The translations under genes and the position numbers were made by a program. The notes below the pieces were generated by a model. It was given only the letters and a program-made list of their open reading frames with translations, ran no database searches and was not told the origin of the DNA. Shown piece by piece: positions 12,191-31,634 of a stretch of 32,000 nt of DNA. The DNA is from Candidatus Saccharimonadota bacterium (GTDB lineage: Bacteria; Pseudomonadota; Gammaproteobacteria; Johnevansiales; Johnevansiaceae): positions 300,001-332,000 of the forward strand of contig NC_018677.1 in assembly GCF_000300075.1 (NCBI RefSeq), written 5' to 3'. How positions within the stretch are numbered: the first letter of the stretch is position 1; every line of letters begins with the position of its first letter.

Positions 12191-13608
12191 ATTATTTTTT
12201 TTATTAAAGACTTAATTTGTTTAGGATTTGCTTTATTGTTTGAGTTTTTAACTATACGACCTATTATAAAATTTAATAATTTTTTCTTTTTTTGTACATT
12301 ACATTTTTTATATAATTTGATTTGTAATACATTTTCTTGAAAAGTTAAATTTAATATGGTTAATAAATTCTTATCATTTATTTGTTCTTTTTTTATTTCA
12401 TTAATTTCTTGTTCTATATTAGTTATATTTGTTGTCCATAATTTATTAAAAATAATTTTAGCAATATTAACGGTAATAATATTTGTTTTTATATAACTTA
12501 TTATTTTACCTAATACCTTTGGCTTTATTGGATTTTGTATTGTATTTAAATAATATAACTTAAATTTTTCAAAAAGATAACATCTTATCCACACAGAAGT
12601 TAACTGAACATCCTTACAAATATTTAAAGTTATTTCAACAAACTTTGCTAAATCTAAAGTAGTCGTAAAAATTTTAGCTTCTTTAAAAGAAAATCCTATT
12701 TGTACAAACAATTCTATTTTACTATGAGGTAATTCTGGTAGGTTTTTTTTTTGATTTACGATCAAGTTATTTTTTATATTAATGGCTAATAAATCAGGAC
12801 AAATTAAAAACAAATAATCGTTTGTATTTTCTTTTTTTCGTAAAGTATAAGTTTTATTTGTTTGGAAATTATATAAACGAGTTTCTTTAACTACTTTACC
12901 ACCTGAATTTAAAATGTTTATTTGTCTTTTAGTTTCATATAAAATAGCACCTTTTATGTATTTATAAGAATTTAAATTTTTAACCTCTATATAATTGTTA
13001 ATTTGTTTTGTTATTTTATTTCTTATAGATATATTTATATCACAACGCAATTCACCTTTTGATAAATCTGCATTAGAAACATTTATATATTTGACTACCT
13101 GTTGAACATACTTCACATACCGTATAACATCTATATAAGTTAATATACAAGGTTTAGTGATTATTTCAAACAAAGGCATACCTGATCGATTAAAATCAAT
13201 AATACTGTATTTTTTATAATGTATTAATTTACCGGCATCTTCTTCTAAATTTACATGATCTATATAAATAGTTTTATTTTTGATTGTAATTTTTCCTGGT
13301 CCTAAAATAGGCTTTTTTTTTTGACTAAGTTGATATCCTTTAGGTAAATCTGGATAAAAATAATTTTTTCTTTCAAATATAGTTTTATTATAAATTTGAG
13401 TAGTTGTAACTAAACCAAAGCTAACAGCCATTTCTATAGCAGTTTGGTTAAAGATTGGTAAGACACCAGGAACTCCAATATCGTAATTACATATTTGTTT
13501 GTTAGGGTATAAACAAACTTTTGTTGAACAATTAGAAAATAATTTAGATTTTGTAGATAGTTGTATATGAGTTTCTATTCCTATAATAGTGTCCCACGAA
13601 TTTAACAT
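12187..13608 (-). CDS. gatB: Asp/Glu-tRNA(Asn/Gln) amidotransferase subunit B
   Basis: WDTIIGIETHIQL, NLEEDAGK, RCDINIS motifs. Follows gatA. Confidence 0.9.
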   Translation of the reverse strand: MLNSWDTIIGIETHIQLSTKSKLFSNCSTKVCLYPNKQICNYDIGVPGVLPIFNQTAIEMAVSFGLVTTTQIYNKTIFERKNYFYPDLPKGYQLSQKKKPILGPGKITIKNKTIYIDHVNLEEDAGKLIHYKKYSIIDFNRSGMPLFEIITKPCILTYIDVIRYVKYVQQVVKYINVSNADLSKGELRCDINISIRNKITKQINNYIEVKNLNSYKYIKGAILYETKRQINILNSGGKVVKETRLYNFQTNKTYTLRKKENTNDYLFLICPDLLAINIKNNLIVNQKKNLPELPHSKIELFVQIGFSFKEAKIFTTTLDLAKFVEITLNICKDVQLTSVWIRCYLFEKFKLYYLNTIQNPIKPKVLGKIISYIKTNIITVNIAKIIFNKLWTTNITNIEQEINEIKKEQINDKNLLTILNLTFQENVLQIKLYKKCNVQKKKKLLNFIIGRIVKNSNNKANPKQIKSLIKKII

Positions 13609-13621
13609 TATTTATATAACC

Positions 13622-15043
13622 TTACAAACTATTCGGATAGTTTAAATGCCAATGTGTATGTTTTTGATAACAATGAGCTATGTTTAACAATAGATGCTCA
13701 GTAAAATGAGGTGTTATTATTTGTAACCCAATAGGACAATTTTTAACAAAACCAATAGGTATATTAATTGCAGGTAAGCCCGCCAAATTCACTGATATTG
13801 TGTAGATGTCTTCTTGTATATTTAAATTGTTCTTTTTTTGAGTTTGTTTTGCAATATAATTATTTGTAGGTAATATGATGCAATCAACAGTTTTAAAAAG
13901 TTTTATAAAGTTATTATAAATGAGTTTTCTAATTTTTTTTGCTTTTATAAAAAGATTAGATTTATTTAAAAAATATGTTCCTAATAAAATACGAGTTTTT
14001 ACCTCTTTACCAAATCCATTTGTACGAGTATTAACATATAGTTCTTCTATAGTTTTAGGATTTATTTTATAGTAACCATATTTTATGCCATCATATTTTG
14101 ATAAATTAGAAGCAGCCTCAGCTGATGCTATAATATAATAAGCGGAAATTGCTGAGTCGATATAAGGTAAACTAATATCAATAAACTTTATACCTAACTT
14201 TGAAAAAACGCGTATTGCTTCTTGTGTAATACAAGAAACGTTTGAAGTTAGATTTTTAAAATATTCTATTGGCAATCCTATTTTTTTCCCCTTTATAGAT
14301 TTATTTATATATTTTAAATAATTATCAGTTTTAAAATTTATGTTTGTAGAATCAAACTTATCACAACCAGAAATAATATTTAATAAGATTGCACAATCTT
14401 TTACTGTATGAGCCATTGGACCCGCTTGGTCTAAGCTAGATGAATAAGAAATAATACCATACCTTGAAAGAAAACCATAACTAGTCTTTAAGCCAGTAAT
14501 ACCACAAAAAGAAGAAGGTAATCTTATAGATCCTCCTGTATCTGTACCTAAAGAAGCTGGTATTAAACATGCAGATATAGCAGAAGCTGATCCTCCAGAA
14601 GATCCACCTGAGACTAAGTTGAAGTTCCAAGGGTTTTTTACTCGTCCAAAAAAACTATGTTCATTATAAGAACCCATTGCAAATTCATCCATATTAGTTT
14701 TACCTATATTTATAAGACCAGCATGTTGAATTTTTTCAATAAGAGTAGAGTTATATGTTGGAATAAAGTTTTTTAACATTTTAGAACCACATGTTGTTTT
14801 AAGACCTTTTGTACAAAATAGATCTTTAACCGCTATAGGTACTCCATACAACTCATTTGTTTGATTAAATTTACGTAAGAAATCACATTGATTTGCTTGC
14901 TTTAGAGCTTTTTTATAGTCTATAGTAATAAAACAATTTAAATGTTTATTGGTTTGTTTAATTTTAGTTAATAAAAATTTTATTAATTCATAACAAGAAA
15001 AATGTTTGTTTTTTAATCCTTTTATAATATCAACGATTGTCAT
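13622..15043 (-). CDS. gatA: Asp/Glu-tRNA(Asn/Gln) amidotransferase subunit A
   Basis: Amidase signature GGSSGGSASAISA and GTDTGGSIRLPSSFCGITGLKTSYG. Confidence 0.93.
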   Translation of the reverse strand: MTIVDIIKGLKNKHFSCYELIKFLLTKIKQTNKHLNCFITIDYKKALKQANQCDFLRKFNQTNELYGVPIAVKDLFCTKGLKTTCGSKMLKNFIPTYNSTLIEKIQHAGLINIGKTNMDEFAMGSYNEHSFFGRVKNPWNFNLVSGGSSGGSASAISACLIPASLGTDTGGSIRLPSSFCGITGLKTSYGFLSRYGIISYSSSLDQAGPMAHTVKDCAILLNIISGCDKFDSTNINFKTDNYLKYINKSIKGKKIGLPIEYFKNLTSNVSCITQEAIRVFSKLGIKFIDISLPYIDSAISAYYIIASAEAASNLSKYDGIKYGYYKINPKTIEELYVNTRTNGFGKEVKTRILLGTYFLNKSNLFIKAKKIRKLIYNNFIKLFKTVDCIILPTNNYIAKQTQKKNNLNIQEDIYTISVNLAGLPAINIPIGFVKNCPIGLQIITPHFTEHLLLNIAHCYQKHTHWHLNYPNSL

Positions 15044-15050
15044 ATAAATA

Positions 15051-15314
15051 TTAAAAAATATTAGGAATTATTATAAAATAATTATTTTTATTAGGTGCAG
15101 ATCCTATATACGTGTTTAGCTTATTATTGCTTTTTACTTGATCTTTTCGTAACCCAACATAAGTTTTAGCATTTAATGTATTTGTAATCGGTTTAATTTT
15201 TATTAATTTTATATTAACTATTTTTTTTACTATTCTATTTATAAACGTTTTTAATTTAATCTTTTTTGTTTTAATTTTAGATAACCTATATAACAACTTG
15301 TTATTTATTTTCAT
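15051..15314 (-). CDS. gatC: Asp/Glu-tRNA(Asn/Gln) amidotransferase subunit C
   Basis: 87-aa ORF ending 7 nt upstream of the gatA start. Size and position are typical of gatC. The sequence itself is highly diverged and K/I/N-rich. Confidence 0.65.
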   Translation of the reverse strand: MKINNKLLYRLSKIKTKKIKLKTFINRIVKKIVNIKLIKIKPITNTLNAKTYVGLRKDQVKSNNKLNTYIGSAPNKNNYFIIIPNIF

Positions 15315-15378
15315 ATAGCCTTTTCCTTAAAATAATAATATTATATAATATACTTTTTTAAATTTACTCTTATTTTGG

Positions 15379-16017
15379 TTGAATAAATATATGATAGAGC
15401 CTTTAGTAATTGCTTTATCAAAAGGACGTATCCTTTTTAAAAGTTTATCATTGTTAAAAAAAGCAGGAATAATTCCTATAGAATCTGTAGAAAACAATAG
15501 AAAATTATTATTTAATACTAAAAAAAAATATTTAAATTTAATAATTTTAAGAGCTATAGATGTGCCTACTTATGTTAAATTAGGTGCAGCTGATATGGGT
15601 ATTGTAGGGAAGGATGTTTTATTAGAAAATGGGTCAAAAGGTTTATATGAACCGATAGATTTTAAGATTTCTAAATGCAGATTAATGACAGCAGGACTAA
15701 TTGGTTTTAATGTAAAAAATACAACTCGTAAAGTCGCAACTAAATTTGTAAATATAGCAAAGAGATATTATGCAAGTAAAGGTATTAAAGCAAATATTAT
15801 AAAATTATATGGCGCAATGGAATTGGCACCTATTATGAATTTAGCAGAGGAAATTATAGATATTGTTGATACAGGTAATACATTAAAAGAAAATGGAATG
15901 GAGCCAAAAACATTAATAAAAAATATAAGTACTAGATTAATTGTAAATAAAACATCTATGATTATAAAATATAAATCCATAAATCCATTAATAGAATTAT
16001 TAATATCTATTATATAA
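15379..16017 (+). CDS. hisG: ATP phosphoribosyltransferase, short (HisG-S) form
   Basis: ALSKGRI, DVPTYVKLGAADMGIVGKDVL, DIVDTGNTLKENG. About 210 aa with no C-terminal regulatory domain. ATG at 15391 (MIEPL...) is the likelier start than TTG at 15379. Confidence 0.88.
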   Translation: MNKYMIEPLVIALSKGRILFKSLSLLKKAGIIPIESVENNRKLLFNTKKKYLNLIILRAIDVPTYVKLGAADMGIVGKDVLLENGSKGLYEPIDFKISKCRLMTAGLIGFNVKNTTRKVATKFVNIAKRYYASKGIKANIIKLYGAMELAPIMNLAEEIIDIVDTGNTLKENGMEPKTLIKNISTRLIVNKTSMIIKYKSINPLIELLISII

Positions 16018-16032
16018 GAAGGAATAATAAAT

Positions 16033-16461
16033 ATGAAAACTTTAAATGTTAAAATTAATGATTTAAAAACAGAATGGTATATTATAAATGCATATAACAA
16101 AAAATTGGGTAGGTTATCTACTAAAATAGTTCATTTTTTATTAGGTAAAAATAAAGTTATTTATAATAGTTATTTAAATATTGGAGATAATATTATTGTT
16201 ATAAATGCCGATCAAATAAAAATAACTGGAAATAAATTAATACAAAAAAAATATTATTATCACACAGGATATCCAGGTGGTTTACGTAAAACAACTCTAT
16301 TAGAACTGATGAAAAAAAATCCAGAAAAAGTAATTAAACAATCAGTTAAAGGTATGTTACCAAAAAATTCATTAGGTAGATTGATTAGTAAAAAACTAAA
16401 AATTTATAAAGGAAAACAACACCCACATATTTCTCAACAACCTTTAGAATTGTTAATTTAA
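16033..16461 (+). CDS. rplM: 50S ribosomal protein L13
   Basis: WYIINA..KLGRLST, YYHTGYPGG. aagga lies upstream of the ATG. Conserved rplM-rpsI pair. Confidence 0.93.
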   Translation: MKTLNVKINDLKTEWYIINAYNKKLGRLSTKIVHFLLGKNKVIYNSYLNIGDNIIVINADQIKITGNKLIQKKYYYHTGYPGGLRKTTLLELMKKNPEKVIKQSVKGMLPKNSLGRLISKKLKIYKGKQHPHISQQPLELLI

Positions 16462-16487
16462 TTTATTAAAGTATTAAGGATATTTTT

Positions 16488-16871
16488 ATGTATTTTTATG
16501 GTACAGGACGTAGAAAAACAGCTAGTGCAAGAGTATTTCTTAAAATAGGTAATGGTAAATTTATAATAAATAACAACACCTTAAAAAAATATTTTCATAA
16601 CATAAATCTCTATTATCTAATGATTCAACCTTTAGAATTAACAAATAATGTAAACACTTTTAATATTAAAATTACTGTTAATGGTGGAGGTGTTAAATCA
16701 CAAGCTGAAGCTATAAGACATGGAATTTCTCGTGCTTTAGTAGCTTATAATAATAATTTACGTTATAAACTCCGACTAAATGGTTATTTAAAGAGAGATT
16801 CAAGAGAAGTTGAAAGAAAGAAAATTGGTTTTAAAAAAGCAAGAAAATCTCCACAATTTTCAAAACGATAA
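16488..16871 (+). CDS. rpsI: 30S ribosomal protein S9
   Basis: GTGRRKTASARVFL and C-terminal KKARKSPQFSKR. Confidence 0.93.
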   Translation: MYFYGTGRRKTASARVFLKIGNGKFIINNNTLKKYFHNINLYYLMIQPLELTNNVNTFNIKITVNGGGVKSQAEAIRHGISRALVAYNNNLRYKLRLNGYLKRDSREVERKKIGFKKARKSPQFSKR

Positions 16872-16880
16872 TTTTATTTT

Positions 16881-17229
16881 TAACATAATTATGCAGTCAC
16901 TTATAATAAGTTTTTATAAGAGGAAAGTCCGGACTCTTTGAGCAAAAGTGCCAGTTAATTGCTGGGCAAAAATTTTTGACGGAAAGTGCACAAGAAAAAA
17001 TACAATCTATTGGTTTTTATAGATAAAGGTGAAAAGGTTTGGTAAAAGCATACCACGTATTTGGAAACAAATTCGTTATGTAAACCCCACTTTGAGTAAA
17101 ACTAAATAAGAATTTAAAGAGCTCTTTTTTTTTATAAACAATTCTGGTAGGTTGCATAAATATATGTAGAAATATATATATTAGATAAATGACTGTAATT
17201 AAAACAGGATCCGGCTTATTATATGTTAA
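16881..17229 (+). ncRNA. rnpB: RNase P RNA (bacterial type A), boundaries approximate
   Basis: Universally conserved P4 strands gaggaaagtccgg (about 16919-16931) and acaggatccggcttat (about 17204-17219). gtgccagttaattgctggg and gtaaaccccac match E. coli rnpB blocks as I remember them. Putative P1 pairing is taacataat (16881) with attatatgtta (17218-17228). Confidence 0.85.
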
Positions 17230-17256
17230 TAATAAACATTAGATACATAAATCTAT

Positions 17257-18315
17257 ATGACACATAAAAGTTTGTTTTTTAATAAAGCAATTGATTATTT
17301 GATAACTAATAAAGATGGTTTATATATTGATTGTACTTTGGGTTTGGGTGGCCATAGTAAACAAATTTTAAATAGATTGTCTATAAATGGTCTGTTAATT
17401 GCACTAGATAATGACTTAAATACAAAAACATTGGTTAAAAATTTAGAATTCTATTTAGATAAAAGGTTTAGTTTTATCAATATCAATTTTAAGTATTTAG
17501 AAATCATAGCCAAAAAAAAACACTTGTTTGGAATTGTTTCAGGCATCTTATTAGATTTAGGAATTTCTACATATCAAATTAAGGATTATAAAAGAGGCTT
17601 TAGTTTTTTTATAAATGGTCCTTTGGATATGAGAATAAACAATACTTTCGGTATCACCGCTTGTTGCCTTTTAAATCATTATAAATTTAAACAAATCTTT
17701 AAGATATTTAAAACATATGGAGAAGATGAACAGTTGTATAGACTAACAGTAGAGATTTGTAATCGTAGACATCACTTTCCGTTTAAAATGACCTTGGAAT
17801 TATCAAATTTGATAAAAACTTTAAAGTTTACAAACTATCATATAAAACACCAATTAATTAAAACAAAACCTAAAATACAAAAAACATACATTATACATCA
17901 TAAATCTATTAAAATAAAACAAAAATTCATCAAACATTCTAAATCAATTAACACCAAACACATTATAATAAAAGAAAATACAACAAAAAACAAAATAATA
18001 AAAACCAATAACAATAGCATAAATAAAAAAAAGAAAAAACACATACATCCATCAACTAAAATTTTTCAAGCAATACGTAGTTACATAAATAATGAAATAC
18101 AAAACTTGGAAATAGTCATTATTACATCTTTAAAACTTTTAAAAACAAACAAAAAGTTAATAATTATTACATTTAATTCTTTAGAATCACAAATAGTAAA
18201 TAAAGTACTAAAAACAACTTTAAATAAAGTAAATAAAATCTATCCTTCAATTGAAGAGGTATTTTATAACAATAGTTCACGTTGTTCTGCTATATTTATT
18301 ATTCAAAAACTTTAA
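17257..18315 (+). CDS. rsmH: 16S rRNA (cytosine1402-N4)-methyltransferase, with a low-complexity internal expansion
   Basis: DCTLGLGGHS, LLDLGISTYQI, RGFSF..GPLDMRI, HPSTKIFQAIR, FNSLESQIV motifs in RsmH order. Confidence 0.85.
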   Translation: MTHKSLFFNKAIDYLITNKDGLYIDCTLGLGGHSKQILNRLSINGLLIALDNDLNTKTLVKNLEFYLDKRFSFININFKYLEIIAKKKHLFGIVSGILLDLGISTYQIKDYKRGFSFFINGPLDMRINNTFGITACCLLNHYKFKQIFKIFKTYGEDEQLYRLTVEICNRRHHFPFKMTLELSNLIKTLKFTNYHIKHQLIKTKPKIQKTYIIHHKSIKIKQKFIKHSKSINTKHIIIKENTTKNKIIKTNNNSINKKKKKHIHPSTKIFQAIRSYINNEIQNLEIVIITSLKLLKTNKKLIIITFNSLESQIVNKVLKTTLNKVNKIYPSIEEVFYNNSSRCSAIFIIQKL

Positions 18316-18377
18316 ACTTTTTATTTATCTTGAACTTGTATTCTTTTCTATTAGTTTTAAACTCTTTTGGTTCTTTC

Positions 18378-18398
18378 TTTTTTTTTTTTTTTTTTTTT
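18378..18398. repeat. Homopolymer T(21)
   Basis: Counted directly. Lies about 60 nt downstream of the rsmH stop. Confidence 0.95.
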
Positions 18399-18820
18399 AC
18401 TCTTTTTTATGCTTTTTTTGTTATATCTAATAATTGATTTTATGTTTTTTTATTTATGTGTTGATATTTTTTTTTGCTTTGTTTGCTGTGTTTTGTGATT
18501 TGCGTTTGTTTTATGTGTTTTTTATTCATTTTATTTGTTGTTTTTAGCCTGTTTAGATTTTGTTATTGCTTTTTGTGTTTTAGTTTTGATGTTATTTGTT
18601 AGTTTAGATGTTATGTCAATTCAAAAGTATGTTGTATAGTTTAAAAAGAAGTAAAATGTGCTTATGTAAGTTGTTTAGTTTAAAAGCTTTTAGATGTTGT
18701 TTAGAGTATAGCGATTATGTTTTGATTTTGGTGTTTTGTTGTTAAATTGGTTTGTGTTTAGTTATTATAATAAAAATATGTTTGTTGTTAATTGAAAGTT
18801 TTTGCTGTTAGTTAATTTTT

Positions 18821-18876
18821 TAGCTTTTAGCTTTTAGCTTTTAGCTTTTAGATGTTAGATGTTAGATGTTAGATGT
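18821..18876. repeat. Heptamer array (TAGCTTT)x4 (TAGATGT)x4
   Basis: Eight units in a single unbroken 7-nt phase. Confidence 0.95.
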
Positions 18877-19585
18877 TGTATTAAAGATGTAAGCGTTTAT
18901 TATATTTGAGTCTTGATATTTGTTATTGTATTTTTGTATTTTTTTTAATTTATTGGTTTGGTTTGTTTAAGATGTTTTAAAAACTTAATTGTTTTAAAAG
19001 TATGTTGTATTGGTGTATAATAAATGTTCACTAGTTAGTTGTATGTTTGTTGTTTATCTTTAAGGTTAAATAAAAAAAGTTGTAAGTTAGATGAAGGTTG
19101 TTTAATGCACGTTGTAGTTTGTATGTTAGAGGTTTAAAATGTTTGCTTTTATTAGTTGTTAGTTGTTATTTATTATTTATTAGATGTTGTTTGTTAAAGC
19201 AAAGATTTTTGACTTTGTATGTAAACTAAATAAGATTGTTGTTTAAGATCAAAAAAGTTGTATAACATTAAATAAGTTTAAATGTAAGAAGATTAGAAAA
19301 TAGAGGGTAGTAGTTGTTATTGTTAAGAGGTTAGTTATTATTTTTTAAGAGGTTTAAGGTTGCTTTAAAGATTAAAGTTAGGTTTGAGGTTTATTTATTA
19401 GAGGTTAGAAGTTTATTAATTGTTTAGTTAGTAAAGAAGTTTGTGTTATACTAGAAAGTTTAAAAGTTATGGTTTTGTTAGTTGATTGGTAGCTTAGTTG
19501 ATGGTTAGAGGAAGGTAGGTTTATTAGTTGGTAATGGTTAGTTATAAAAAAAGTTAGTGGGTTAGTTGTTGTTTAAATAGGTTAG

Positions 19586-19613
19586 TGTTTTGTGTTTTGT
19601 GGTTTGTGGTTTG
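19586..19613. repeat. Heptamer array (GTGTTTT)x2 (GTGGTTT)x2
   Basis: Direct reading. Confidence 0.85.
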
Positions 19614-19647
19614 TGTTAAGTAGTTGCTTTTTAGAGGATAGAGTTTT

Positions 19648-19766
19648 GTTGATTGTTGATTGTTGATTGTTGATTGTTGTTTGTTAGTTGAGGGTTGAGG
19701 GTTGAGGGTTGTAGGTTGTAGGTTGTAGGTTGTAGGTTGTTAGTTGTTAGTTGTTAGTTGTGGTTT
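19648..19766. repeat. 17-unit phase-locked heptamer array
   Basis: (GTTGATT)x4 GTTGTTT GTTAGTT (GAGGGTT)x3 (GTAGGTT)x4 (GTTAGTT)x3 GTGGTTT. Unit starts all fall at 19648+7k. Confidence 0.95.
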
Positions 19767-19844
19767 AGGTTTGATGGTTAAAAGGTCTTAACAAATTATC
19801 TTGTATAGTGGAAGACGATAGTAGAGGTTTAGGTTTGATGGTTA
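19762..19844. repeat. 19-nt direct repeat ggtttaggtttgatggtta x2 (period 64)
   Basis: Identical copies at 19762-19780 and 19826-19844. A second dispersed pair aaaaaaagttagtgggttagttgtt lies near 19547 and 19851. Confidence 0.85.
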
Positions 19845-20352
19845 GTAAAAAAAAAGTTAGTGGGTTAGTTGTTTAGTTAAAAAGAGGTTGGTGTTTTGTG
19901 GTTGTAAAATATAAAATAGTTAATTATTAGTTGTTAGATAGAAGAAAGGTTGTGTAGTAGTATGTGTTGTTGTAAAAAAGTGAAAAACATGTAAAAGAAG
20001 AAAACAATAGAAAAAAGTATATAAGAAAATACTTAAAAGATGAAAAAAAAGAACGGTAATAAATCAGAAAAGAATATATGTATAACATATAAAAAAAGAA
20101 AAATAGAACATAGATTAGAACATGGTATATAGGAGATGGCATAAGAATAAACAGATTACAGAAACAGAAAGGAATAAAAATGTAAACGTAAACAGGAATC
20201 ATGAATAGTTAGTTAATAGGAAGATATGGGTATGTTATTACTGAATTAAAAATAAAGAACATTTAAAGAAACATATAAAAATAAATAAGTAAAAATAAAC
20301 ATACACCATAAAACAAAAAAAAACAAACAAAACAGAAAAAAGATAATAAAAT

Positions 20353-22902
20353 ATGAAGACAAAAATAAAAAAAAACATATATAATGCAACCCCAGCAATA
20401 ACACAATACCTTAGGATAAAAAACCATTATCACAAAATTTTGTTAATGTATCGTATGGGTGATTTTTATGAATTTCTTTTTGAAGATGCGCACACAGCCT
20501 CTGCTTTATTAAATATTCAATTAACTAGCAAAGGAAAATATAATAATAAACGTATTCCTATGGCAGGAATACCTTGTCATAGTTTAAGAACATATTTAAA
20601 ACGTATTATCACAGCAGGAATATCGGTTGCTATTTGTGAACAAATAAAAACAAAAAAAACAAAGAAAAGTAAATTGCTTGAACGAAAAGTAATTCGAGTA
20701 ATTACACCAGGCACTTTATATGAAGACAGTTTATTAGATGAAAGTAAAGATAATTTGATTATATCAATAATTCAAAAAAATAATAAATGGGGTATTTCTT
20801 GGCTAGAATTCACAACAGGTGCTTTTGGTGTTTTGGAAGTTGATAATATACACGATTTACGTTTGGAATTAGATCGATTAAACCCTGTTGAGCTCTTAAT
20901 TTCTAGATTACATAAAAAATTACCTAAACTTCCCGTACACAAATCAATAATTAAACCTATAAGTGATATTAATTTCGATTATAACAATGCTTGTAAAGTT
21001 TTGTTTAAAAAACTAAATATAAAAAATATAAATAAAAAACTTAATGCTGGTGTTTCTGCAGCTGGTGCTATAATACAATATATAAATAATAATAAAATTT
21101 ATAATTTAGCACATATTAACCATTTAATTTTTGAAAATAAAAAAGATAAGTTAAAAATAGATCGTATTACTAAAAAACATTTAGAACTTGATGTAAATGT
21201 TAATGGCAAACAAGAAAATACTTTGTTTAGTGTTTTAAATAATACAATGACACATATGGGGAGTCGTTTATTAAAAAAATGGATTAATAACCCTATTACT
21301 AATTATGATTTAGTTTTTTCTAGACAAAAAGGCGTTGAGATTGTTTTAACAAATAATTTCATAGATATTTTACAAAAATATATAAAAAAAATTGGAGATA
21401 TAGAACGTATTGTTACGAGAATATCTTTAAAAACAGCAAAGCCCTTAGATTTAATCAAATTTAAAATTGCTTTAAACGTTTTTCCTAAACTTAAAACTTT
21501 GTTAAAGGGACTATTAATAGTAAATAAAAACAGCAAGTCTATACTAAATTATATTCATAAAGAGATTTTTACTTTTCCCAATATTGCTTTACTTTTAGAT
21601 GAAGCATTAGTCGATAATCCTCCTAACTCCTTTAGATATGGATATGTAATAAAGTCACATTTTAATAAAAACTTAGATAAGTTGCGTAAAATCTATACTA
21701 ATTCAGAAAAGTTTATAAAAACGTTTGAAAACAAAGAAAAATTACGTACCGGAATAATAAAATTAAAAGTTACTTATAATAAGCTTCATGGTTTGTTTAT
21801 AGAAATACCTAAAGGTCGTAAACATAAATACAAAATTCCTAAAAATTATATAAGAACAAAAACATTAAAAAATTCAGAAAGATTTTATACTAGTGAATTA
21901 AAGTACTTTGAAAAACGTTTAATAGAATCAAAAGAAAAGTCAATAAAATATGAAAAAAGTATTTTTAAAAAATTAATAAAGGTTCTTGTAGGTAATATAC
22001 CTTATTTTATAAAAACATCAAAATCACTAGCCACGTTGGATGTTATTACTACTTTTGCTGAAAGAGCTTTAACACTGAATTATTGCAAACCAATAATAAA
22101 TAAAAACAAAATAGGCATAAAAATCATGGAGGGTAGACATCCTGTAATTGAATCTACAACTAACCATCACTTTGTACCTAATAATTTATTTTTAAATCAT
22201 AATAAAAGTATACACATTATTACAGGACCGAACATGGGTGGAAAGTCTACTTTTATCAGACAAATTGCCATTATTGTTTTATTAACATATATTGGAAGTT
22301 ATGTACCTGCTAAATATGCTGAAATCGGTCCTATTGATCAAATTTTTACCAGAATAGGTGGTTATGATGATTTAAGTGCAGGAAAATCAACTTTTATGAT
22401 TGAAATGCATGAAACTGCTAAAATATTAAACACCGCAACTTTTAAAAGTTTAGTACTAATGGATGAAATAGGAAGAGGAACTAATCCTACAGAGGGTTTA
22501 TGTCTCGCTTGGGCATGTTTAGAAAGAATAATACAAATTAAAGCTTTAACGTTGTTTTCTACTCATTATTTTAGTTTAACTCAAATAGCAAAAAAATTTA
22601 AACAAATAACAAACTTACACTTTAGTGCTTCCATCAAATCTAATAAAGTTAGTTATATTTACAATATACAAAAAGGTGCTACAAACAATAGTTACAGTTC
22701 GTCGGTTGCTAGTTTGGCTAATATAGCACAAGGCGTTATAAATAAATCCAACAATCTTATAAAGCACTTTCAAGATCATCAAAAAAGCCTAAATAAAAGA
22801 CATACGTTAATGAAATATATAAAATCTTTTAAATATAAAGACTTAACACGTTATCTAAAATTTATAAAAAGTTTTTTCAAAAACCTAAAAGATATGTTTT
22901 AA
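20353..22902 (+). CDS. mutS: DNA mismatch repair protein MutS (apparently intact)
   Basis: 849 aa. Mismatch-binding GDFYE, Walker A GPNMGGKSTFIRQ, Walker B LVLMDEIGRGT, STHY. No frame disruption. Confidence 0.93.
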   Translation: MKTKIKKNIYNATPAITQYLRIKNHYHKILLMYRMGDFYEFLFEDAHTASALLNIQLTSKGKYNNKRIPMAGIPCHSLRTYLKRIITAGISVAICEQIKTKKTKKSKLLERKVIRVITPGTLYEDSLLDESKDNLIISIIQKNNKWGISWLEFTTGAFGVLEVDNIHDLRLELDRLNPVELLISRLHKKLPKLPVHKSIIKPISDINFDYNNACKVLFKKLNIKNINKKLNAGVSAAGAIIQYINNNKIYNLAHINHLIFENKKDKLKIDRITKKHLELDVNVNGKQENTLFSVLNNTMTHMGSRLLKKWINNPITNYDLVFSRQKGVEIVLTNNFIDILQKYIKKIGDIERIVTRISLKTAKPLDLIKFKIALNVFPKLKTLLKGLLIVNKNSKSILNYIHKEIFTFPNIALLLDEALVDNPPNSFRYGYVIKSHFNKNLDKLRKIYTNSEKFIKTFENKEKLRTGIIKLKVTYNKLHGLFIEIPKGRKHKYKIPKNYIRTKTLKNSERFYTSELKYFEKRLIESKEKSIKYEKSIFKKLIKVLVGNIPYFIKTSKSLATLDVITTFAERALTLNYCKPIINKNKIGIKIMEGRHPVIESTTNHHFVPNNLFLNHNKSIHIITGPNMGGKSTFIRQIAIIVLLTYIGSYVPAKYAEIGPIDQIFTRIGGYDDLSAGKSTFMIEMHETAKILNTATFKSLVLMDEIGRGTNPTEGLCLAWACLERIIQIKALTLFSTHYFSLTQIAKKFKQITNLHFSASIKSNKVSYIYNIQKGATNNSYSSSVASLANIAQGVINKSNNLIKHFQDHQKSLNKRHTLMKYIKSFKYKDLTRYLKFIKSFFKNLKDMF

Positions 22903-23294
22903 CAACTTTGTCTTATAAACTTTCCTTATTTTACAAATAACTCTTTACCACAACTAACCACTATAGAATTTACAGTTACTATTTTTTTACAATTCTATCA
23001 TCAATTTCTTAAACAACAACCTTCTTTTATAAAAACATCTACTTCAATATTCTTTTATATGTCATACTTCTATATACCCCATATATATCCTATCATACCA
23101 ATACTTCTTACACACAGCATTTAAACTTAACAACTAACTTTTTATAAGTATAACAAATTACATTAAACATTAATCAACCTTCTAAAGCAATAACCATTTA
23201 AATTAATGACAAATAAAAAAATCAATGTTTAAAACATACCATCAACCTTTTTAACTTTTAATATAAAAGCACAAACCTTTTCCATTTTCCTTTT

Positions 23295-23347
23295 CCCTTT
23301 CCCTTTCCCTTTCCCTTTCCCTTTCCCTTTCCCTTCCCCTTCCCCTT
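23295..23347. repeat. Hexamer array (CCCTTT)x6, CCCTT, (CCCCTT)x2
   Basis: Direct reading. The complement is (AAAGGG)n with nine G-runs of 3 or more. Confidence 0.95.
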
Positions 23348-23405
23348 AATCCCCTTTCAACCTTTTTATTTTAACCAAAAACCTTTTACCCTTTATTTTT
23401 TTTCC

Positions 23406-23601
23406 AACCTACAACCTACAACCTACTACCTACTACCTACAACCTACAACCACTAAACACTTACCAACAACCAACAACCAACTACCAACTACCAACTACC
23501 AACTACCAACAACCTACAACCTACAACCAACAACCAACTACCAACTACCTACAACCTACAACCTACAACCTACAACCACTAAACACTAAACACTAAACAC
23601 C
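23406..23601. repeat. 28-unit phase-locked heptamer array (AACCTAC / TACCTAC / AACCAAC / TACCAAC / AAACACT family)
   Basis: Units read at 23406+7k with no phase break across 196 nt. AACCTAC is the reverse complement of the GTAGGTT units at 19711-19738. Confidence 0.93.
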
Positions 23602-23694
23602 ATTCAAACCTTACTACTAACATCAACCCATACTATCAGCAAACAATTACCAACCAACACTTACTTCCAACAACTCCTTACATTTACCCATCTT

Positions 23695-23751
23695 CTTTTT
23701 TAACTAACATAATCAAGTTTAATCAAACTCTTTTTTAACTAACATAATCAA
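23695..23751. repeat. 22-nt tandem duplication cttttttaactaacataatcaa (period 35)
   Basis: Identical copies at 23695-23716 and 23730-23751. Confidence 0.9.
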
Positions 23752-23886
23752 TAACTTAATTTTAACTATAAAACTACATATTTTTTTGTTTTGTTTTCTA
23801 ACAACTATTTACCTAACAAACAACCTCTATCTTTCTACTAATTTAACAAAATCTAATAACTTAACAACTAAACCAATAATTTTTAA

Positions 23887-23935
23887 CTACCAGCTACCAG
23901 CTACCAGCTACCATCAACCATCAACCATCAACCAT
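23887..23935. repeat. Heptamer array (CTACCAG)x3 CTACCAT (CAACCAT)x3
   Basis: Direct reading, single phase. Confidence 0.93.
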
Positions 23936-24066
23936 CTAATTTAATACTACCAACATCTAACATTTAATAACTTCTACTTATTTCATATTATATATATATA
24001 CAACTTCTAACATCTAACATCTAATTTTAGCAACATCTAATAACTATTTACTACAAAACTACCAAC

Positions 24067-24129
24067 TATCTTTCATATAACTACTATACTATATACTACT
24101 ATTATCTTTCATATAACTACTATACTATA
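24067..24129. repeat. 27-nt tandem duplication tatctttcatataactactatactata (period 36)
   Basis: Identical copies at 24067-24093 and 24103-24129. Confidence 0.9.
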
Positions 24130-24311
24130 ATGTATCAATATAAATCAGTTTATATCTTAAATAAAATACAACAAATAATGAAGTAACTAATTCAAATACA
24201 AAGTTATAACATATAAATACTATATTTAAAATAATATAACTTGGTGCTTTAAACTAATAACTACTGTATTACATATTACAAAACATATAAATACAAAGTA
24301 CAAACAAATTA

Positions 24312-24484
24312 CTAACAACTAACAACTAACAACTAACCTAACACCTAACACCTAACACCTCAAACCTAACAACTCTAACCTAACACCTCAAACCTCAAAC
24401 CTCAAACCTCAAACCTAACAACTCTAACCTCTAACCTCTAACCTCTAACCTAACACCTAACACCTAACAACTCTAACCTCTAAC
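24312..24484. repeat. Heptamer arrays: (CTAACAA)x3, one 5-nt phase slip, then 21 phase-locked units of CTAACAC / CTCAAAC / CTAACAA / CTCTAAC
   Basis: All 21 units from 24338 to 24484 were read individually. Confidence 0.95.
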
Positions 24485-24494
24485 TGATAACAAT

Positions 24495-24526
<32 letters not shown>

Positions 24527-24562
24527 ATAACAACTTTAAAGCAAAACTCAAACATCTATTAA

Positions 24563-24590
24563 CTAATAACTAACAACTAACAACTAACAA
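24563..24590. repeat. Heptamer array CTAATAA (CTAACAA)x3
   Basis: Direct reading. Confidence 0.9.
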
Positions 24591-24945
24591 TTTACAAATA
24601 CAAACTATTAAACAAAAAAGCATCAATTAACTAACAACTTTTAATCTATTTTTTTTAATCTAACCTCTAATAACAAACATCAAAAACTTTAACTCAAAAA
24701 TCAACAATACAAAACAGCAAACATAACCATCAACAATACAAACTCTAAACTTTAAACAAAAATATAACAAATAACACAAAACTGAAAAATACTAGTAGAA
24801 AACAACGAAAAAAGAAAACCTAAAAAGCAATAACAAAACACCTAACTGCAACTACAAAACTAAAAAACAGCTAACAAACAACAAACAACACATAATATAA
24901 AGAGAGATAAACCCAAATATTAGATATAACAACAAAAATATTTGT

Positions 24946-25059
24946 AATAATATACGACCAGTATTAGCGGTAATAAAGTCAGTACCAGCGGTAATATACG
25001 ACCAGTATTAGCGGTAATAAAGCTCCATAGACCAGTATTAGCGGTAATAAAGTCAGTAA
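24946..25059. repeat. Three and a half direct copies of a 22-31 nt unit (core accagtattagcggtaataaag)
   Basis: Core at 24957-24978, 25001-25022 and 25031-25052. A shortened copy accagcggtaata at 24984-24996. Copies 1 and 2 share 31 nt and copies 1 and 3 share 29 nt. Confidence 0.9.
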
Positions 25060-25479
25060 TATATGGAGTTGTTTTTTTGAGCCAATTTAAATGAAGAATC
25101 TGTACATAAATAATCAGGTAAGTCAAAAAAAGTAAAAATGTAAGTTTGTCCATAATAGTATTGGTTGACACATTCTATAAAAATACATTAATAAACCACT
25201 TGAAAACGATGTAAATGCAAAATCTCTATCACTTACTGCATCGAAAAATTTTTATAAGATCAAAACATAGTAGCTTTTTAATTAAGGCACAAATTCAAGT
25301 TGAATATGTAGTTACAGCAGATCATATCCTAAAGGTAATATATTTATTATTTTCCGCCAATCTAAAAATACGTAAATAAGCTCTAAATAGCTTTTAATTT
25401 TAAGCTAATACATGATGGCAAAAAGTAATTGTGTGCTGTGATGATTGTAACTGATTTTATCCAGTTAATATAGTATAAG

Positions 25480-25514
25480 AATCACTAATCACTAATAGCT
25501 AATAGCTAATAGCT
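25480..25514. repeat. Heptamer array (AATCACT)x2 (AATAGCT)x3
   Basis: Direct reading. Confidence 0.9.
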
Positions 25515-25922
25515 ATTTTTCTTAAAGCTGGTCTTAACTTTAGTTAGTTAATGCATCTATTTTTTTTCTTAAATTAAGATGAATAGCTGTAGAAAACAAT
25601 CACATATATGCATTTTTTTTTCAAAGCTTTCTATTCTTTATTATTTTGCTAAACCACTTTATATTCTTTCTTAATACAACTTTCAATTACTTTTTATTCC
25701 TTTTTTTATACTTTTACTTTCTTTTCAACAACTAACATTTTTCTTATTGTTGTATTTTTTATATTTACGTTGATATCATACCAATAAATACGAAAATAAA
25801 ACTTATAGAATTTAACTACGAAATTATCAGTATAAAAATTAAAACAGCTACGTCTAATCAGGTTATTTTAACGTGTTCATTTTAAATTTTGCTATATGCT
25901 ATTAAGTTTATATTATATATAA

Positions 25923-25995
25923 GCCGGAGTAGCTCATATGGTAGAGCACCGCATTCGTAATGCGAAGGTAATAGGTTCAATTCCTATCTCCGGTA
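25923..25995 (+). tRNA. tRNA-Thr (anticodon CGU)
   Basis: Manual cloverleaf: acceptor gccggag/ctccggt, loop ttCGTaa, T arm atagg-ttcaatt-cctat. The anticodon arm and variable region (cgcattcgtaatgcgaaggt) are identical to E. coli tRNA-Thr(CGU) as I remember it. Confidence 0.88.
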
Positions 25996-26001
25996 AATTA
26001 A

Positions 26002-27012
26002 TTATATTACTTTTTCATTTGTCAATTCACATTTAAAATACGCGTAATACATAGGAGCAGCTATTAAACCTGAAAAACCAAATGCTGCATCAAAAAATAA
26101 CATAGCAAATAATAATTCCCATGCATTTGAGTTAATACGCAAACCTATGATACGAGCATTTAAAAAATATTCTAATTTATGAATAGCTATTAAATAAGTA
26201 AGTGCTATAACTGCAGTCCACAAAGATACTGAAAGTGATACAATAAAAATCAATATATTCGAAATAAGATTTCCTATTAAAGGTATTAACCCCATTATGA
26301 ATGTAATTAATATTAACGTTTTTGTTAACGGTATATACACATTTAAACAAGGTGCACAGATTAATAATAAAATAGAACTTAACAATGTATTAACTAAAGA
26401 TATTTTTAGTTGTGCAAAAACTACGTTATGAAAAGCGTTACTTAAAGTAATAGATCTTTGTAATAAAGCATAAGTTAACGGAGTAAGTGATTTAATATCA
26501 GGAATATCCTGTAAAGCAATTATTGCTCCTAAAATCATACCTGATAATAATGAAAAACAAGTATGAATGGCACATCCAAAAACAAATTGAAGTTCGTTTA
26601 CATGCTTATATATCAATTCATTTATAATTTGACTTAATTCATCTGCACTTTCTGGTAAATAAATGACAACACTATGCGGCAATTGATGTCTAGCTTTATC
26701 AAAAATTAACATATATCTTTGAATTAAATTATCAGGTGTTTTTATGTCTTGTAAAATAAAACTAATAACTGTAAAAAAAAATAAACTTAAAATAGTTACT
26801 ATACTGGCTCCTAATAAAACTACTGAACTTAATCTGGCTTTATTTACTGGGATTAATGTTTGTAACAAAGGTGTAATTGCCTTAACTAATTCAAATACAA
26901 ATAAACCAGATAATAAACAAGGTAAAAGATGCAAAGGAAAGATTAATAACAAACCCATAAAATAAATTAATAAACTTATAACGGTAGCTCTTGTCAACAT
27001 ATAATTGTTCAT
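26002..27012 (-). CDS. Integral membrane protein, probably an AI-2E / PerM (UPF0118) family permease
   Basis: 336 aa with multiple hydrophobic spans. The C-terminal pattern (LIPLIGNLISNI...; GFSGLIAAPMY) resembles the AI-2E family. The family call rests on pattern memory only. Confidence 0.5.
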   Translation of the reverse strand: MNNYMLTRATVISLLIYFMGLLLIFPLHLLPCLLSGLFVFELVKAITPLLQTLIPVNKARLSSVVLLGASIVTILSLFFFTVISFILQDIKTPDNLIQRYMLIFDKARHQLPHSVVIYLPESADELSQIINELIYKHVNELQFVFGCAIHTCFSLLSGMILGAIIALQDIPDIKSLTPLTYALLQRSITLSNAFHNVVFAQLKISLVNTLLSSILLLICAPCLNVYIPLTKTLILITFIMGLIPLIGNLISNILIFIVSLSVSLWTAVIALTYLIAIHKLEYFLNARIIGLRINSNAWELLFAMLFFDAAFGFSGLIAAPMYYAYFKCELTNEKVI

Positions 27013-27018
27013 AAAGAT

Positions 27019-27963
27019 TCAATTTTTAAAATAAAGAGGGTATTTGTTTTTACAATGAGAAACTAATATATCTCTATATTTTTTTGGTTCTTTATGTCTT
27101 AAATTATGAGTAACAGGAAAAATATTTTTAACTAATAAACGAGAAATCCAATATCTCAAAGCTGTTAACCGTAACATTTTTGGCAAAATATATACTTCTT
27201 CCTTTGTAAAAGGCCGTTCAAGAACATAATGATTTAATATTGCTTTATATTTATCTTCTAAAAGATTCCCATGTTGATCACTACACCAATCATTTATTAA
27301 AATTGCTAAATCAAAAATTAAATCCCCTGTACATCCATTGTAAAAATCTATTAACCCACAAATATTGTTACCATTAAATAATGTATTGTCTCTAAACAAA
27401 TCACCATGCAGAATACCTTGTGGTAAGTTTGTTACTATATGTTTTAATAAATAAATTTGATTAAACATTAACTCTTGATCTTCTTTAGTTAATAAAGATA
27501 TTACTTTATAGTAATTTAAAACAATCCAATTAATATCTCTTAAATTTTGTTTTTTTAATTTAAATTTATTAGAAATAGAATGTAATCTTCCCAAAGTTTT
27601 ACCTATAATAGAACATTGTTCAATATTTTGTGTTCTTGGGTGTATACCATACAACTTAGGAAACAATAAAGCATGTTTACCAGATAACTTTTTTATTATT
27701 ATATTATTTTTATCAATTAAAGGCATTGCTATTGGTAAACAATGTTCATAAAGAAATTTTAATAAGTCTATAAACCCCGTTAAATCCTTATAAGAACCTT
27801 GTTCAAATAAGGTTAATACAAACTTTTTAGTTTCTGTTTGAATAAAAAATGTTGAATTTTCTGTTCCTTGTTTTACTTCTTTAAATTTTATTTGTTTTTT
27901 TATATTAAAACTTTTTAAAAATAAACTTAATTTTTGTTTTTTTATTTTAGTAAATACAGCCAT
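27019..27963 (-). CDS. thrB: Homoserine kinase, APH-fold (Pseudomonas-type ThrB)
   Basis: N-terminus MAVFTKI...GTENSTFFI...FVLTLFE and catalytic HGDLFRDNTLF, paralleling Pseudomonas-type ThrB as I remember it. Confidence 0.75.
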   Translation of the reverse strand: MAVFTKIKKQKLSLFLKSFNIKKQIKFKEVKQGTENSTFFIQTETKKFVLTLFEQGSYKDLTGFIDLLKFLYEHCLPIAMPLIDKNNIIIKKLSGKHALLFPKLYGIHPRTQNIEQCSIIGKTLGRLHSISNKFKLKKQNLRDINWIVLNYYKVISLLTKEDQELMFNQIYLLKHIVTNLPQGILHGDLFRDNTLFNGNNICGLIDFYNGCTGDLIFDLAILINDWCSDQHGNLLEDKYKAILNHYVLERPFTKEEVYILPKMLRLTALRYWISRLLVKNIFPVTHNLRHKEPKKYRDILVSHCKNKYPLYFKN

Positions 27964-27970
27964 ATAATAT

Positions 27971-29014
27971 TTACTTTAATATATATTTAATCGTTTCTAT
28001 TAAATAATTCATTTGTTGTATAGTTCCTATTGATATGCGTATATATTTTTTTATATTATTAAAATATCTTAATAAAATACCATGATTGCGTAATTTAATA
28101 AACATTGTTTTTGCTGATATATTATTTGGTTTAACTAACATAAAATTAGCTTTAGACGGCAAAACAGTAAAACCAACATCTTTTAATTGCTTTGATAAAG
28201 TTTCACGTATATAAATAATATAATTACAAATTTTTTTTAAATACTTAATGTCTTTAATTGCTTCAATAGCTATTAATTCACTAATAACATCAATAGGATA
28301 TGAATTAAATGAATTTTTAACTTTTTCTAATCCTTTTATTAAATAAGTAGATCCTATAGCAAAACCAATTCTTATCCCAGCTAAACTATAAGCTTTTGAT
28401 AAAGTGTTTACAATTAATAAATTTTTATATTTTTTTATCAGTGGTATTGCACTTTCAGAACCAAATTTTATATATGCTTCATCTATTAAAACTACATATT
28501 CATTATGTATATCAAGCAACTTGTTAACTTCTATATAAGAGATTGCATGACCTGTAGGTGTATTAGGATTAGCAAAGATTATACCTCCATTACTGATATT
28601 CATTTTCTTTAAATTTATTTCAAATTTGTTTTGCAATGGTATTGTTTTATATCTTATATTATACAACTTACAGTAAACTGGGTAAAAACTATAAGTTATC
28701 GTTGGCATTAATAATGGTAATTTCTGACAAAAAAACGTCATAAAAGCTAACGCTAATACTTCATCTGAGCCATTACCAATAAAGATTTGTTCAGATTTAA
28801 CATTATATACTTTTGCAATAATTTTTCTAAGCTTACTAGTTGTTGGATCAGGATAAAGTCTTAATTTATAATAATTAAAATTTTTTAATAACTTATTTAT
28901 TTTAGGAGTAGGAGGATAAGGATTTTCATTTGTATTTAATTTAATCATTTTTTTATATGGTTGTTCACCAGGTGTATATGGATGTAATTTATTAATTTTA
29001 TAACTCATTCTCAT
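27971..29014 (-). CDS. hisC: Histidinol-phosphate aminotransferase
   Basis: NTNENPYPP and the PLP-lysine region TLSKAYSLAGIRIGFAIG. Confidence 0.9.
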   Translation of the reverse strand: MRMSYKINKLHPYTPGEQPYKKMIKLNTNENPYPPTPKINKLLKNFNYYKLRLYPDPTTSKLRKIIAKVYNVKSEQIFIGNGSDEVLALAFMTFFCQKLPLLMPTITYSFYPVYCKLYNIRYKTIPLQNKFEINLKKMNISNGGIIFANPNTPTGHAISYIEVNKLLDIHNEYVVLIDEAYIKFGSESAIPLIKKYKNLLIVNTLSKAYSLAGIRIGFAIGSTYLIKGLEKVKNSFNSYPIDVISELIAIEAIKDIKYLKKICNYIIYIRETLSKQLKDVGFTVLPSKANFMLVKPNNISAKTMFIKLRNHGILLRYFNNIKKYIRISIGTIQQMNYLIETIKYILK

Positions 29015-29025
29015 TTTATGTTACC

Positions 29026-29799
29026 TTAAAATCTAACAGAAATTCCTTTTTTTGCCATATATTTTTTAGCTTTATCAATTGTATATTCACCAAAATGAAA
29101 TATACTAGCTGCTAAAACAGCATCTGCTTTACCTGTTTTTATGCCTTCAACAAAATGATCTAAATTACCAACTCCTCCTGAAGCTATAATTGGTACGTTA
29201 ACTCTTTGACTAATAGTTTTAATAAGATTAATATCAAAGCCTCTTTTAGTTCCATCTCTATCAATGCTAGTAATTAATAATTCACCTGCTCCATATTTAA
29301 CCATTTTACAGGCCCAATCTATTGCACTAATACCACTATTTTTTCTGCCTCCATAAGTTAAAACTTCCCAATCTTCTTTTATATTTTTATTTGTTTTTCG
29401 TTTGGCATCTATAGCTACTACTATGCATTGACTCCCAAATTTATCAGATGCTTCACGCACTATTTTTGGATTTAATACAGCAGCAGTATTTATTGAAATT
29501 TTATCAGCTCCTGCATTCAGTAATTCTCTAATGTTCTTACAAGTTTTTATTCCGCCTCCTACAGTTAATGGTATAAAAATTTCATTTGCTATTTTCTTAA
29601 CTACTTCTATAGTATTATTTTTTCCACTATAACTTGCTTTTATATCTAATAATGCGATTTCATCTGCCTTTTGTTCGTTATAAAACTTAGCAATTTTTAA
29701 AGGATCGCCTGCATAACGAGTGTTTTCAAACTTTATACCTTTTACTACTTTTCCACAATCAATATCCAAGCATGGAATTATACGTTTAGACAAGCTCAT
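29026..29799 (-). CDS. hisF: Imidazole glycerol phosphate synthase, cyclase subunit
   Basis: [36 protein letters not shown]. Confidence 0.93.
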
Positions 29800-29828
29800 A
29801 TAAAATAAAACCTATTTTTTTTATTATT

Positions 29829-31543: not shown

Positions 31544-31634
31544 CTAACAGCTAACAGCTAACAGCTAACAGCAAACAGCAAACAGCTAACAGCTAACAGC
31601 TAACAACTAACAACTAACAACTAACAACTAACAA
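31544..31634. repeat. 13-unit phase-locked heptamer array (CTAACAG)x4 (CAAACAG)x2 (CTAACAG)x3 (CTAACAA)x4
   Basis: Units read at 31544+7k without a phase break. Confidence 0.95.

Follow-up and report, generated by a model that had tools for sequence, protein, structure and literature searches.

The heptamer arrays that stand in opposite orientation on the two sides of mutS in Candidatus Portiera aleyrodidarum are probably the known, fast-evolving 7-bp microsatellites of this symbiont residing in two spacers of opposite strand polarity, and not the traces of an inverted duplication, a replication boundary or a flippable cassette. The DNA under study is a stretch of 32,000 nucleotides (NC_018677.1, positions 300,001 to 332,000; hereafter the window), which is identified by its sequence as the mutS locus of the Portiera symbiont of Bemisia tabaci. 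Together with the adjoining stretches L133 and L139 it was analyzed over about 50 kb, from -9.4 to +40.5 kb, and all positions without further specification refer to the window. Each of the four long intergenic regions (IGR1 to IGR4) of the window is characterized by an extreme strand asymmetry, with almost no C in one of its strands; a further spacer, IGR5 (L139 1408-3651), lies 14 kb to the right. The long spacers and mutS are arranged as follows.

4669 to 6037, plus strand: IGR1, from tRNA-Met to rplY, C-depleted and G/T-rich (G237:C70), with heptamer arrays at 5604-5679 found by Tandem Repeats Finder (TRF).

18316 to 20352, plus strand: IGR2, the left spacer between rsmH and mutS, G420:C78 overall, C-depleted and G/T-rich up to about 19950.

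20353 to 22902, plus strand: mutS, intact, encoding 849 amino acids (NCBIfam MutS, 860 bits).

22903 to about 24950, minus strand: IGR3, the skewed part of the right spacer, G-depleted and A/C-rich on the plus strand, with a skew of -0.7 to -1.0.

30546 to 32000, continuing to about 32824 past the window, minus strand: IGR4, from hisA to hisH, G-depleted on the plus strand (G104:C489).

In IGR2, 100-nt windows display a GC skew of +0.4 to +1.0, with +0.5 to +1.0 for the stretch that ends at about 19950, and the part from about 19950 to the start of mutS is A/G-rich. Short-period arrays were found in six spacers, and the period is 7 in 51 of these 72 arrays, in agreement with the TRF list. The arrays relevant for the comparison of both mutS flanks, and the one in IGR4, are listed here.

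18818 to 18877, plus strand: adjacent arrays (TTTTAGC)4.9 and (TTAGATG)4.3, the second belonging to the TAGATGT family (TRF and exact check).

19646 to 19771, plus strand: composite array of (TTGTTGA)~5, (GTTGAGG)3.6, (GTAGGTT)4.9 and (GTTAGTT)3.7 (TRF and exact check).

23405 to 23600, minus strand: composite array of AACCTAC, TACCTAC, CAACAAC, CAACTAC and CACTAAA, the reverse-complement counterpart of 19646-19771.

24311 to 24590, minus strand: arrays of CTAACAA, CCTAACA, CCTCAAA and CCTCTAA (TRF and exact check).

24489 to 24526, within the array region 24311-24590: triplet run (AAC)12.7.

31544 to 31634, minus strand: CTAACAG/CTAACAA array in IGR4.

The 13 coordinates that the first-pass annotation of this DNA had assigned to the repeats were all exact, and the units on the right are indeed exact reverse complements of those on the left, with CTAACAA being a rotation of AACTAAC, the reverse complement of GTTAGTT. 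The families had also been described as roughly mirrored in order with distance from mutS, which applies to two of the three families and not to the arrangement as a whole: outward from mutS the left side carries GTTAGTT (594 nt), GTAGGTT (615 nt) and TAGATGT (1477 nt), the right side AACCTAC (504 nt), ACATCTA (1051 nt) and CTAACAA (1410 and 1668 nt). Every array sits on the locally G-rich strand, which bears out the suggestion of a repeat-generating process that is locked to strand orientation. The adjacent arrays at 18818-18877 vary in presence and copy number among strains. A hexamer array, (TTTCCC)~10 at 23276-23347, is situated just 3' of mutS and differs by one unit from the strain CP016304.

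The sharing of heptamers is not specific to the flanks of mutS. When each spacer was turned to its G/T-rich strand, three families were found common to IGR2 and IGR3, and the same number is shared by IGR2/IGR5 and by IGR4/IGR5, with two families in common for IGR3/IGR4 and IGR3/IGR5; the AGTTGTT family is present in IGR2, IGR3, IGR4 and IGR5. In non-array sequence, IGR2/IGR5 and IGR3/IGR5 have 12- and 13-mers in common at the same density as IGR2/IGR3. Three exact families in common exceed the naive expectation for random heptamers of spacer composition (mean 0.47, P=0.007), because the units form one loose family with the consensus A-G-N-T-K-K-T (loosely TAG-N-T-K-K on the G/T-rich strand) and a single A in most units; TAG occurs in 40 of the 62 arrays compared to the expected 19%. 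Since the two spacers flanking mutS are opposite in polarity, one shared vocabulary reads there as reverse complements. In this regard, IGR4 and IGR5 are instructive, because they bracket the hisH-hisB-rluD-marC block with opposite polarity and share three families, hence the pattern of the same families in opposite orientation recurs around a block of genes unrelated to mutS.

Along the 50 kb the polarity of successive spacers runs C,C,G,G,G,G,C,C,(0),G,G, which corresponds to at least three flips. The C type is represented by the lepA/groEL and grx/parA spacers, IGR3 and IGR4, the G type by the parA/tRNA-Lys spacer, IGR1, IGR2, the rluD/marC spacer and IGR5. The asymmetry is extreme in spacers only, where the absolute skew reaches 0.6-1.0, and no enrichment of promoters or terminators was found in them. 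The direction of transcription, considered as a rule for the polarity, accounts for IGR2, IGR4 and the parA-tRNA-Lys spacer and, only if read-through is assumed, for IGR3. It fails at IGR1 as well as at the aroQ-mutS spacer of another Portiera lineage (L144, see below) and is a candidate rule only.

The spacers evolve much faster than the genes that they separate. Seven other assemblies encode the identical MutS protein (CP007563, CP016343, CP016327, CP016304, CM014390 and, from whitefly, JGI PWF and PQ2WF), and with mutS identical the unit types and copy numbers of the arrays vary among the eight strains. Compared to CP016304, the 3 kb of IGR3 contain no substitution at all, but indels of +6, +7, +7 and +21 nt, each of whole units, with the array region 24311-24590 differing only by whole-unit indels of +7 and +21 nt. 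Divergence of spacers and genes was compared over window positions 10727-30545. Against CP007563, 15 genes and RNAs show a single difference in 14,009 nt (0.007%), while the spacers differ at 0.54-0.65% outside of exact arrays and by dozens of additional indels, i.e. they change about 80-fold faster than the genes; against CP016343 the corresponding values are 1.5-3.3% for spacers versus 0.22% for genes. On the G/T-rich strand, nearly every spacer substitution relative to CP007563 exchanges A with T or G with T, and few are transitions, hence the three-letter alphabet is maintained. IGR2 can be aligned across all B. tabaci strains, yet many indels separate them. In CP007563 and PWF, whose mutS is identical to that of the window, IGR2 lacks the GTAGGTT and GTTGAGG blocks, and the proximal IGR3 arrays consist of GGTGTTT and GGTGGTT in place of AGGTTGT and AGTTGGT. 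A metagenome scan with TTAGNTGTTAGNTGTT for the JGI contig PWF_10001 gave only unrelated contigs among the matches listed. Another difference between strains concerns a part of IGR3 that is absent from CP016343, CP016327 and the Logan contig L007.

23409 to 24500, without strand assignment: strain-variable segment of 1.1 kb carrying the AACCTAC, the ACATCTA and the first CTAACAA arrays.

The strand asymmetry itself appears to be older than the heptamers, as two further unstable Portiera lineages with expanded spacers (L141 and L144) have it as well. In the sister species L141 (10001-16655; MutS 76% identical) mutS is separated by 1 kb from rsmH and by 1.7 kb from pheT, in L144 (10001-13411; GCA_902713745, Singhiella-type) the order is aroQ, a 3.1-kb spacer, mutS, lipA and pheT, and in the Portiera of Pealius mori (L001 8730-13405) mutS abuts an alaS-like gene and lipA. 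The spacers adjacent to mutS that were examined (L141 8995-10000 and 12539-14252; L144 6869-10000) have skews of -0.67 in L141 and -0.80 in L144 and are devoid of 7-bp arrays. Hence, the asymmetry is probably the older and more general feature, on which the heptamers would be a B. tabaci overlay that inherited the polarity. The L141 spacer downstream of mutS has the same polarity as IGR3, and its rsmH-mutS spacer is bipolar, with about 250 nt of G/T-rich followed by about 600 nt of A/C-rich sequence. The L141 and L144 spacers gave only low-complexity matches with the window and no spacer homology. Considered over these lineages, the neighbors of mutS shift stepwise from alaS-like/lipA to aroQ/lipA, to rsmH/pheT and to rsmH/tRNA-Thr-AI-2E, which makes mutS of the B. 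tabaci symbiont a single-gene island between two rearrangement junctions of different age.

Collectively, these data demonstrate slippage by whole units of 7 bp, a rapid turnover of the arrays, their orientation according to spacer polarity and a vocabulary common to the spacers. Within the three-letter spacer DNA, 7-bp microsatellites are thus probably born, expanded, contracted and replaced all the time. New arrays would be copied in cis from local sequence, thereby inheriting the polarity of the spacer and spreading related variants of the unit. Slippage and template switching could be attributed to a replisome lacking DnaQ proofreading and MutL, the loss of which is reported in the literature. 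The polarity may predate the arrays and may have been set separately for each spacer or block. A hairpin-driven asymmetry of slippage was rejected. The ranges 19640-19770, 23400-23530 and 24311-24440, folded as single-stranded DNA in both orientations, are predicted to be wholly unstructured, with a minimum free energy of 0 kcal/mol on either strand; such freedom from structure is expected from the three-letter composition and makes hairpin-stabilized slippage unlikely. Abnormally long intergenic regions of the B. tabaci Portiera, a dramatic spike of 7-bp tandem repeats and 7-bp indels between strains are described by Sloan & Moran 2013 (Genome Biol Evol 5:783; PMC3673631), who name dnaE, dnaB and mutS as the sole remaining replication and repair genes. 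The mirrored heptamers are a real observation, but they represent a local view of an already published genome-wide phenomenon (PMC3673631).

Two explanations had been put forward for the mirrored repeats, of which the ancient inverted duplication is unlikely as their source. According to it, both flanks would descend from one sequence, by duplication or by an inversion mediated by inverted repeats, and would later have been overwritten by microsatellite turnover. What speaks for it is found mainly in the outermost parts of both spacers.

18413 to 18463, plus strand: left arm of the outer inverted pair, with 44 of 52 positions (85%) identical to the reverse complement of 24887-24938.

24887 to 24938, minus strand: right arm of the outer inverted pair (Smith-Waterman score 105).

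An exact 15-mer of this pair, TTGTTATATCTAATA, is unique within the 50 kb. The score of 105 exceeds the 23-66 obtained with other spacers as well as the 72.8+-8.5 of the harshest Markov null, although with a z of only about 3.8 under this most conservative model. A loose colinear chain of 12- to 17-mers connects 18418-18817 with 24932-24625, by which the inverted homology may extend to about 200 nt, and the arms and the big arrays lie nearly equidistant from mutS, with paired coordinates summing up to about 43,170-43,350. The outer ends of both spacers therefore probably share an old and small inverted homology, although the case for it is marginal. Apart from these outer 50-200 nt, no consistent inverted diagonal was found between IGR2 and IGR3. 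When the left flank is plotted against the reverse-complemented right flank, the dot-plot displays mainly array-to-array matches, with non-repeat inverted similarity restricted to the outer segment; likewise, the strong blastn matches under standard scoring are exclusively array-to-array (19646-19771 vs 23405-23607) and occur in many registers. A 1.6-kb alignment of about 61% identity obtained by blastn with lax scoring was discarded as compositional. The colinear score of the two spacers mostly survives local shuffling: shuffles that keep the local composition gradient still reach 264-293, hence most of the colinear excess reflects a shared gradient of composition. IGR2/IGR5 and IGR3/IGR5 also score above their own shuffles and share as many non-array k-mers as the mutS flanks. 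Furthermore, two strains lack the inner 1.1 kb of the right arm, and the rsmH-mutS junction predates the split from L141 while the right junction is specific for B. tabaci, i.e. the two spacers have different histories. Asian strains have a 5-nt deletion in the right outer arm only, which indicates that the arms do not evolve in concert. The duplication can thus claim about 50 nt at 85% identity, perhaps 200 nt, and the remainder is accounted for by composition gradient and array matches. Nevertheless, several points weigh against an explanation by oppositely polar microsatellite spacers alone. IGR2 and IGR3 are the most similar pair of spacers (best blastn 90 bits compared to at most 62 for other pairs), their colinear score of 315 is higher than all global block shuffles (225+-17) and most local shuffles, and the outer inverted pair is kept in every strain. 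It is likely that some true inverted homology exists between the mutS flanks that is not explained by the shared vocabulary. Moreover, the span analyzed amounts to about 50 kb of a 350-kb genome, and the polarity may stem from transcription direction, local history or replication direction.

The other explanation invoked one strand-specific process acting on two oppositely replicated arms. In this case, a process linked to leading and lagging strands would endow the leading strand with G/T-rich repeats, and mutS would be the terminus at which the forks converge. A strand enriched in G/T and depleted of C, as seen in the spacers, is the classical signature of leading-strand DNA; in addition, the cumulative GC skew within the window has its maximum at mutS, and a single switch would account for all four of its long spacers. 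However, the inclusion of 10 kb more on each side reveals two extra flips, with C-type spacers at -6.7 to -1 kb and G-type spacers at +34 to +39 kb, i.e. a succession of C,G,C,G within 50 kb. No skew is seen at the fourfold sites of the 19 'G'-block genes (85 G:94 C; 46:49 in plus-strand and 39:45 in minus-strand genes), the skew at such sites in the other blocks being confounded with gene orientation. DnaA boxes are not enriched (56 observed versus 71 expected) and do not cluster near mutS, dif not having been searched. A net GC skew of about +0.09 is given for the B. tabaci Portiera in PMC13637331, which would favor an arm boundary, while PMC5322561 reports no appreciable genome-wide skew pattern; a clear pattern is described as lost in this lineage. 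Array turnover far outpaces changes of gene order, yet the arrays follow the local and not a replichore-wide polarity, and an A/C-rich, G-poor stretch inside rsmH lies directly beside the G/T-rich IGR2. The assumption of two oppositely replicated arms was therefore not borne out, and an arm boundary at mutS is very unlikely. At least as improbable is the view that the blockwise polarity, which switches every 10-20 kb and changes sign at mutS, records a directional DNA transaction instead of history; the spacers would then mark multiple zones of replication initiation or convergence, or R-loop-prone transcription domains, on a chromosome without DnaA-type control, with mutS as a point of convergence and the spacers as DNA made directionally by a replisome without proofreading. 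The first-pass annotation had further proposed that the inverted repeats might flip the mutS segment by homologous recombination. An invertible cassette, in which the inverted arrays or the outer arms turn mutS around within populations and thereby switch mismatch repair, seems extremely improbable to us. Inverted repeats do bound the mutS segment, with a longest exact match of 31 nt (19707-19737 vs 23547-23577) next to matches of 60 nt at 88% and 52 nt at 85%, but they are short and degenerate. For this genome, PMC3673631 documents that repeats recombine and that single insects harbor structural polymorphism, with conflicting read pairs correlating with tandem repeats; the recombining repeats described there are identical over 172-349 bp, far above 31 nt. 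Short-read contigs break exactly at the arrays, which is expected at any variable repeat. At the level of assemblies, mutS has the same orientation in the window, in the seven other assemblies, which include several cryptic species, and in the colinear Logan contig L007, and the order from rsmH to mutS is also the same in L141; no alternative orientation was seen among them. There is no recombinase among the annotated genes of the 50 kb examined. Most of the short-read Logan contigs with mutS end at or near the (TTTCCC)~10 array on the right and at 19708-19762 on the left.

Fast-evolving microsatellites in oppositely polar spacers hence remain the favored explanation, and they can be compared to several known systems. 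The closest one is the set of expanded intergenic regions of Portiera itself (PMC3673631), since organism and spacers are the same as here. Replichore composition, such as GC skew, chirochores and the KOPS and Chi-type motifs that invert at ori and dif, is similar in that a G/T-rich strand and oriented motifs switch strand, whereas in Portiera at least three flips occur per 50 kb, the extremes are confined to spacers, fourfold sites are unskewed where this can be separated from gene orientation, and an origin signal is missing. With the simple-sequence contingency loci of host-adapted bacteria, for instance the tetra- to heptanucleotide repeats of Haemophilus and Neisseria, the arrays have in common the change of copy number by slippage, which becomes more unstable when mismatch repair or proofreading is defective. 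However, contingency loci are placed within coding regions or promoters, where they switch particular genes, while the Portiera arrays fill kilobases of non-coding spacer, change also in unit type and have no consistent relation to gene starts. Finally, the heavy and light strands of animal mitochondrial DNA display a comparably strong G-versus-C asymmetry in a tiny, repair-poor genome of endosymbiont origin, but there it extends over the whole genome and shows at synonymous sites as well, whereas in Portiera it is confined to spacers and reverses between neighboring ones.

The passages of the Portiera literature that matched our search terms, including those in PMC3673631, PMC5322561 and PMC13637331, contain no mention of a nearly C-free strand, of arrays locked to polarity, of the TAG-N-T-K-K vocabulary or of blockwise flips. 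The strand-locked, blockwise-polar spacers can thus be regarded as a modest addition to the published picture. They give a sharper view on how DNA is created in a minimal, repair-poor genome, in which fast-evolving three-letter spacers keep their polarity while the arrays within them are replaced. If the polarity were tied genome-wide to the direction of replication or transcription, such spacers would act as a natural recorder of strand-specific processes in an organism that can be neither cultured nor manipulated.

With regard to its gene content, the window has a G+C content of about 24% and carries trpEGDC, rplY, prs, prfA, crtYBI, gatCAB, hisG, rplM, rpsI, the RNase P RNA and rsmH, furthermore mutS, tRNA-Thr, an AI-2E transporter gene, thrB, hisC, hisF and hisA. 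HisA has exact matches in complete Portiera genomes from B. tabaci, an exact match of TrpE was found solely in CP016304, and the nearest GTDB species representative elsewhere is the Portiera of P. mori (PeMo) with 72%. An origin of the spacers from decayed neighboring genes was rejected, because a tblastn search with 15 proteins of the P. mori Portiera found mutS only.

Some other features of the window deserve attention. Directly behind IGR3, about 970 bp upstream of tRNA-Thr (24950-25922) are unskewed, contain no open reading frames and evolve fast between strains. This stretch may be a recently decayed gene. It is neither duplicated in the 50 kb nor homologous to neighboring genes, the Rfam search of 24900-25950 gave nothing at E<=1, and the rsmH 3' region has no homology to it past the outer arm. 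Three copies of a motif of about 31 nt and balanced composition, with the core GACCAGTATTAGCGGTAATAAAG, open the unskewed stretch at 24948-25058. The gene rsmH (17257-18315) contains an in-frame, low-complexity insert of about 60 amino acids rich in Lys, Ile and His (17860-18060), after which the conserved RsmH C-terminus resumes. The DNA of this insert is A/C-rich and G-poor and includes a 39-bp tandem repeat at 17871-17951; it is strand-lopsided like the spacers, but intragenic and opposite in polarity to the adjoining IGR2. The apparent gap between rpsI and rsmH is occupied by a full-length bacterial RNase P RNA at 16881-17232 on the plus strand (Rfam RF00010, 186 bits). The carotenoid genes crtY, crtB and crtI (8741-12190, minus strand) adjoin prfA (7654-8748, plus strand), whose 3' end overlaps crtY by 8 nt; for prfA, the literature reports a 172-bp tract that is held identical to prfB by gene conversion.

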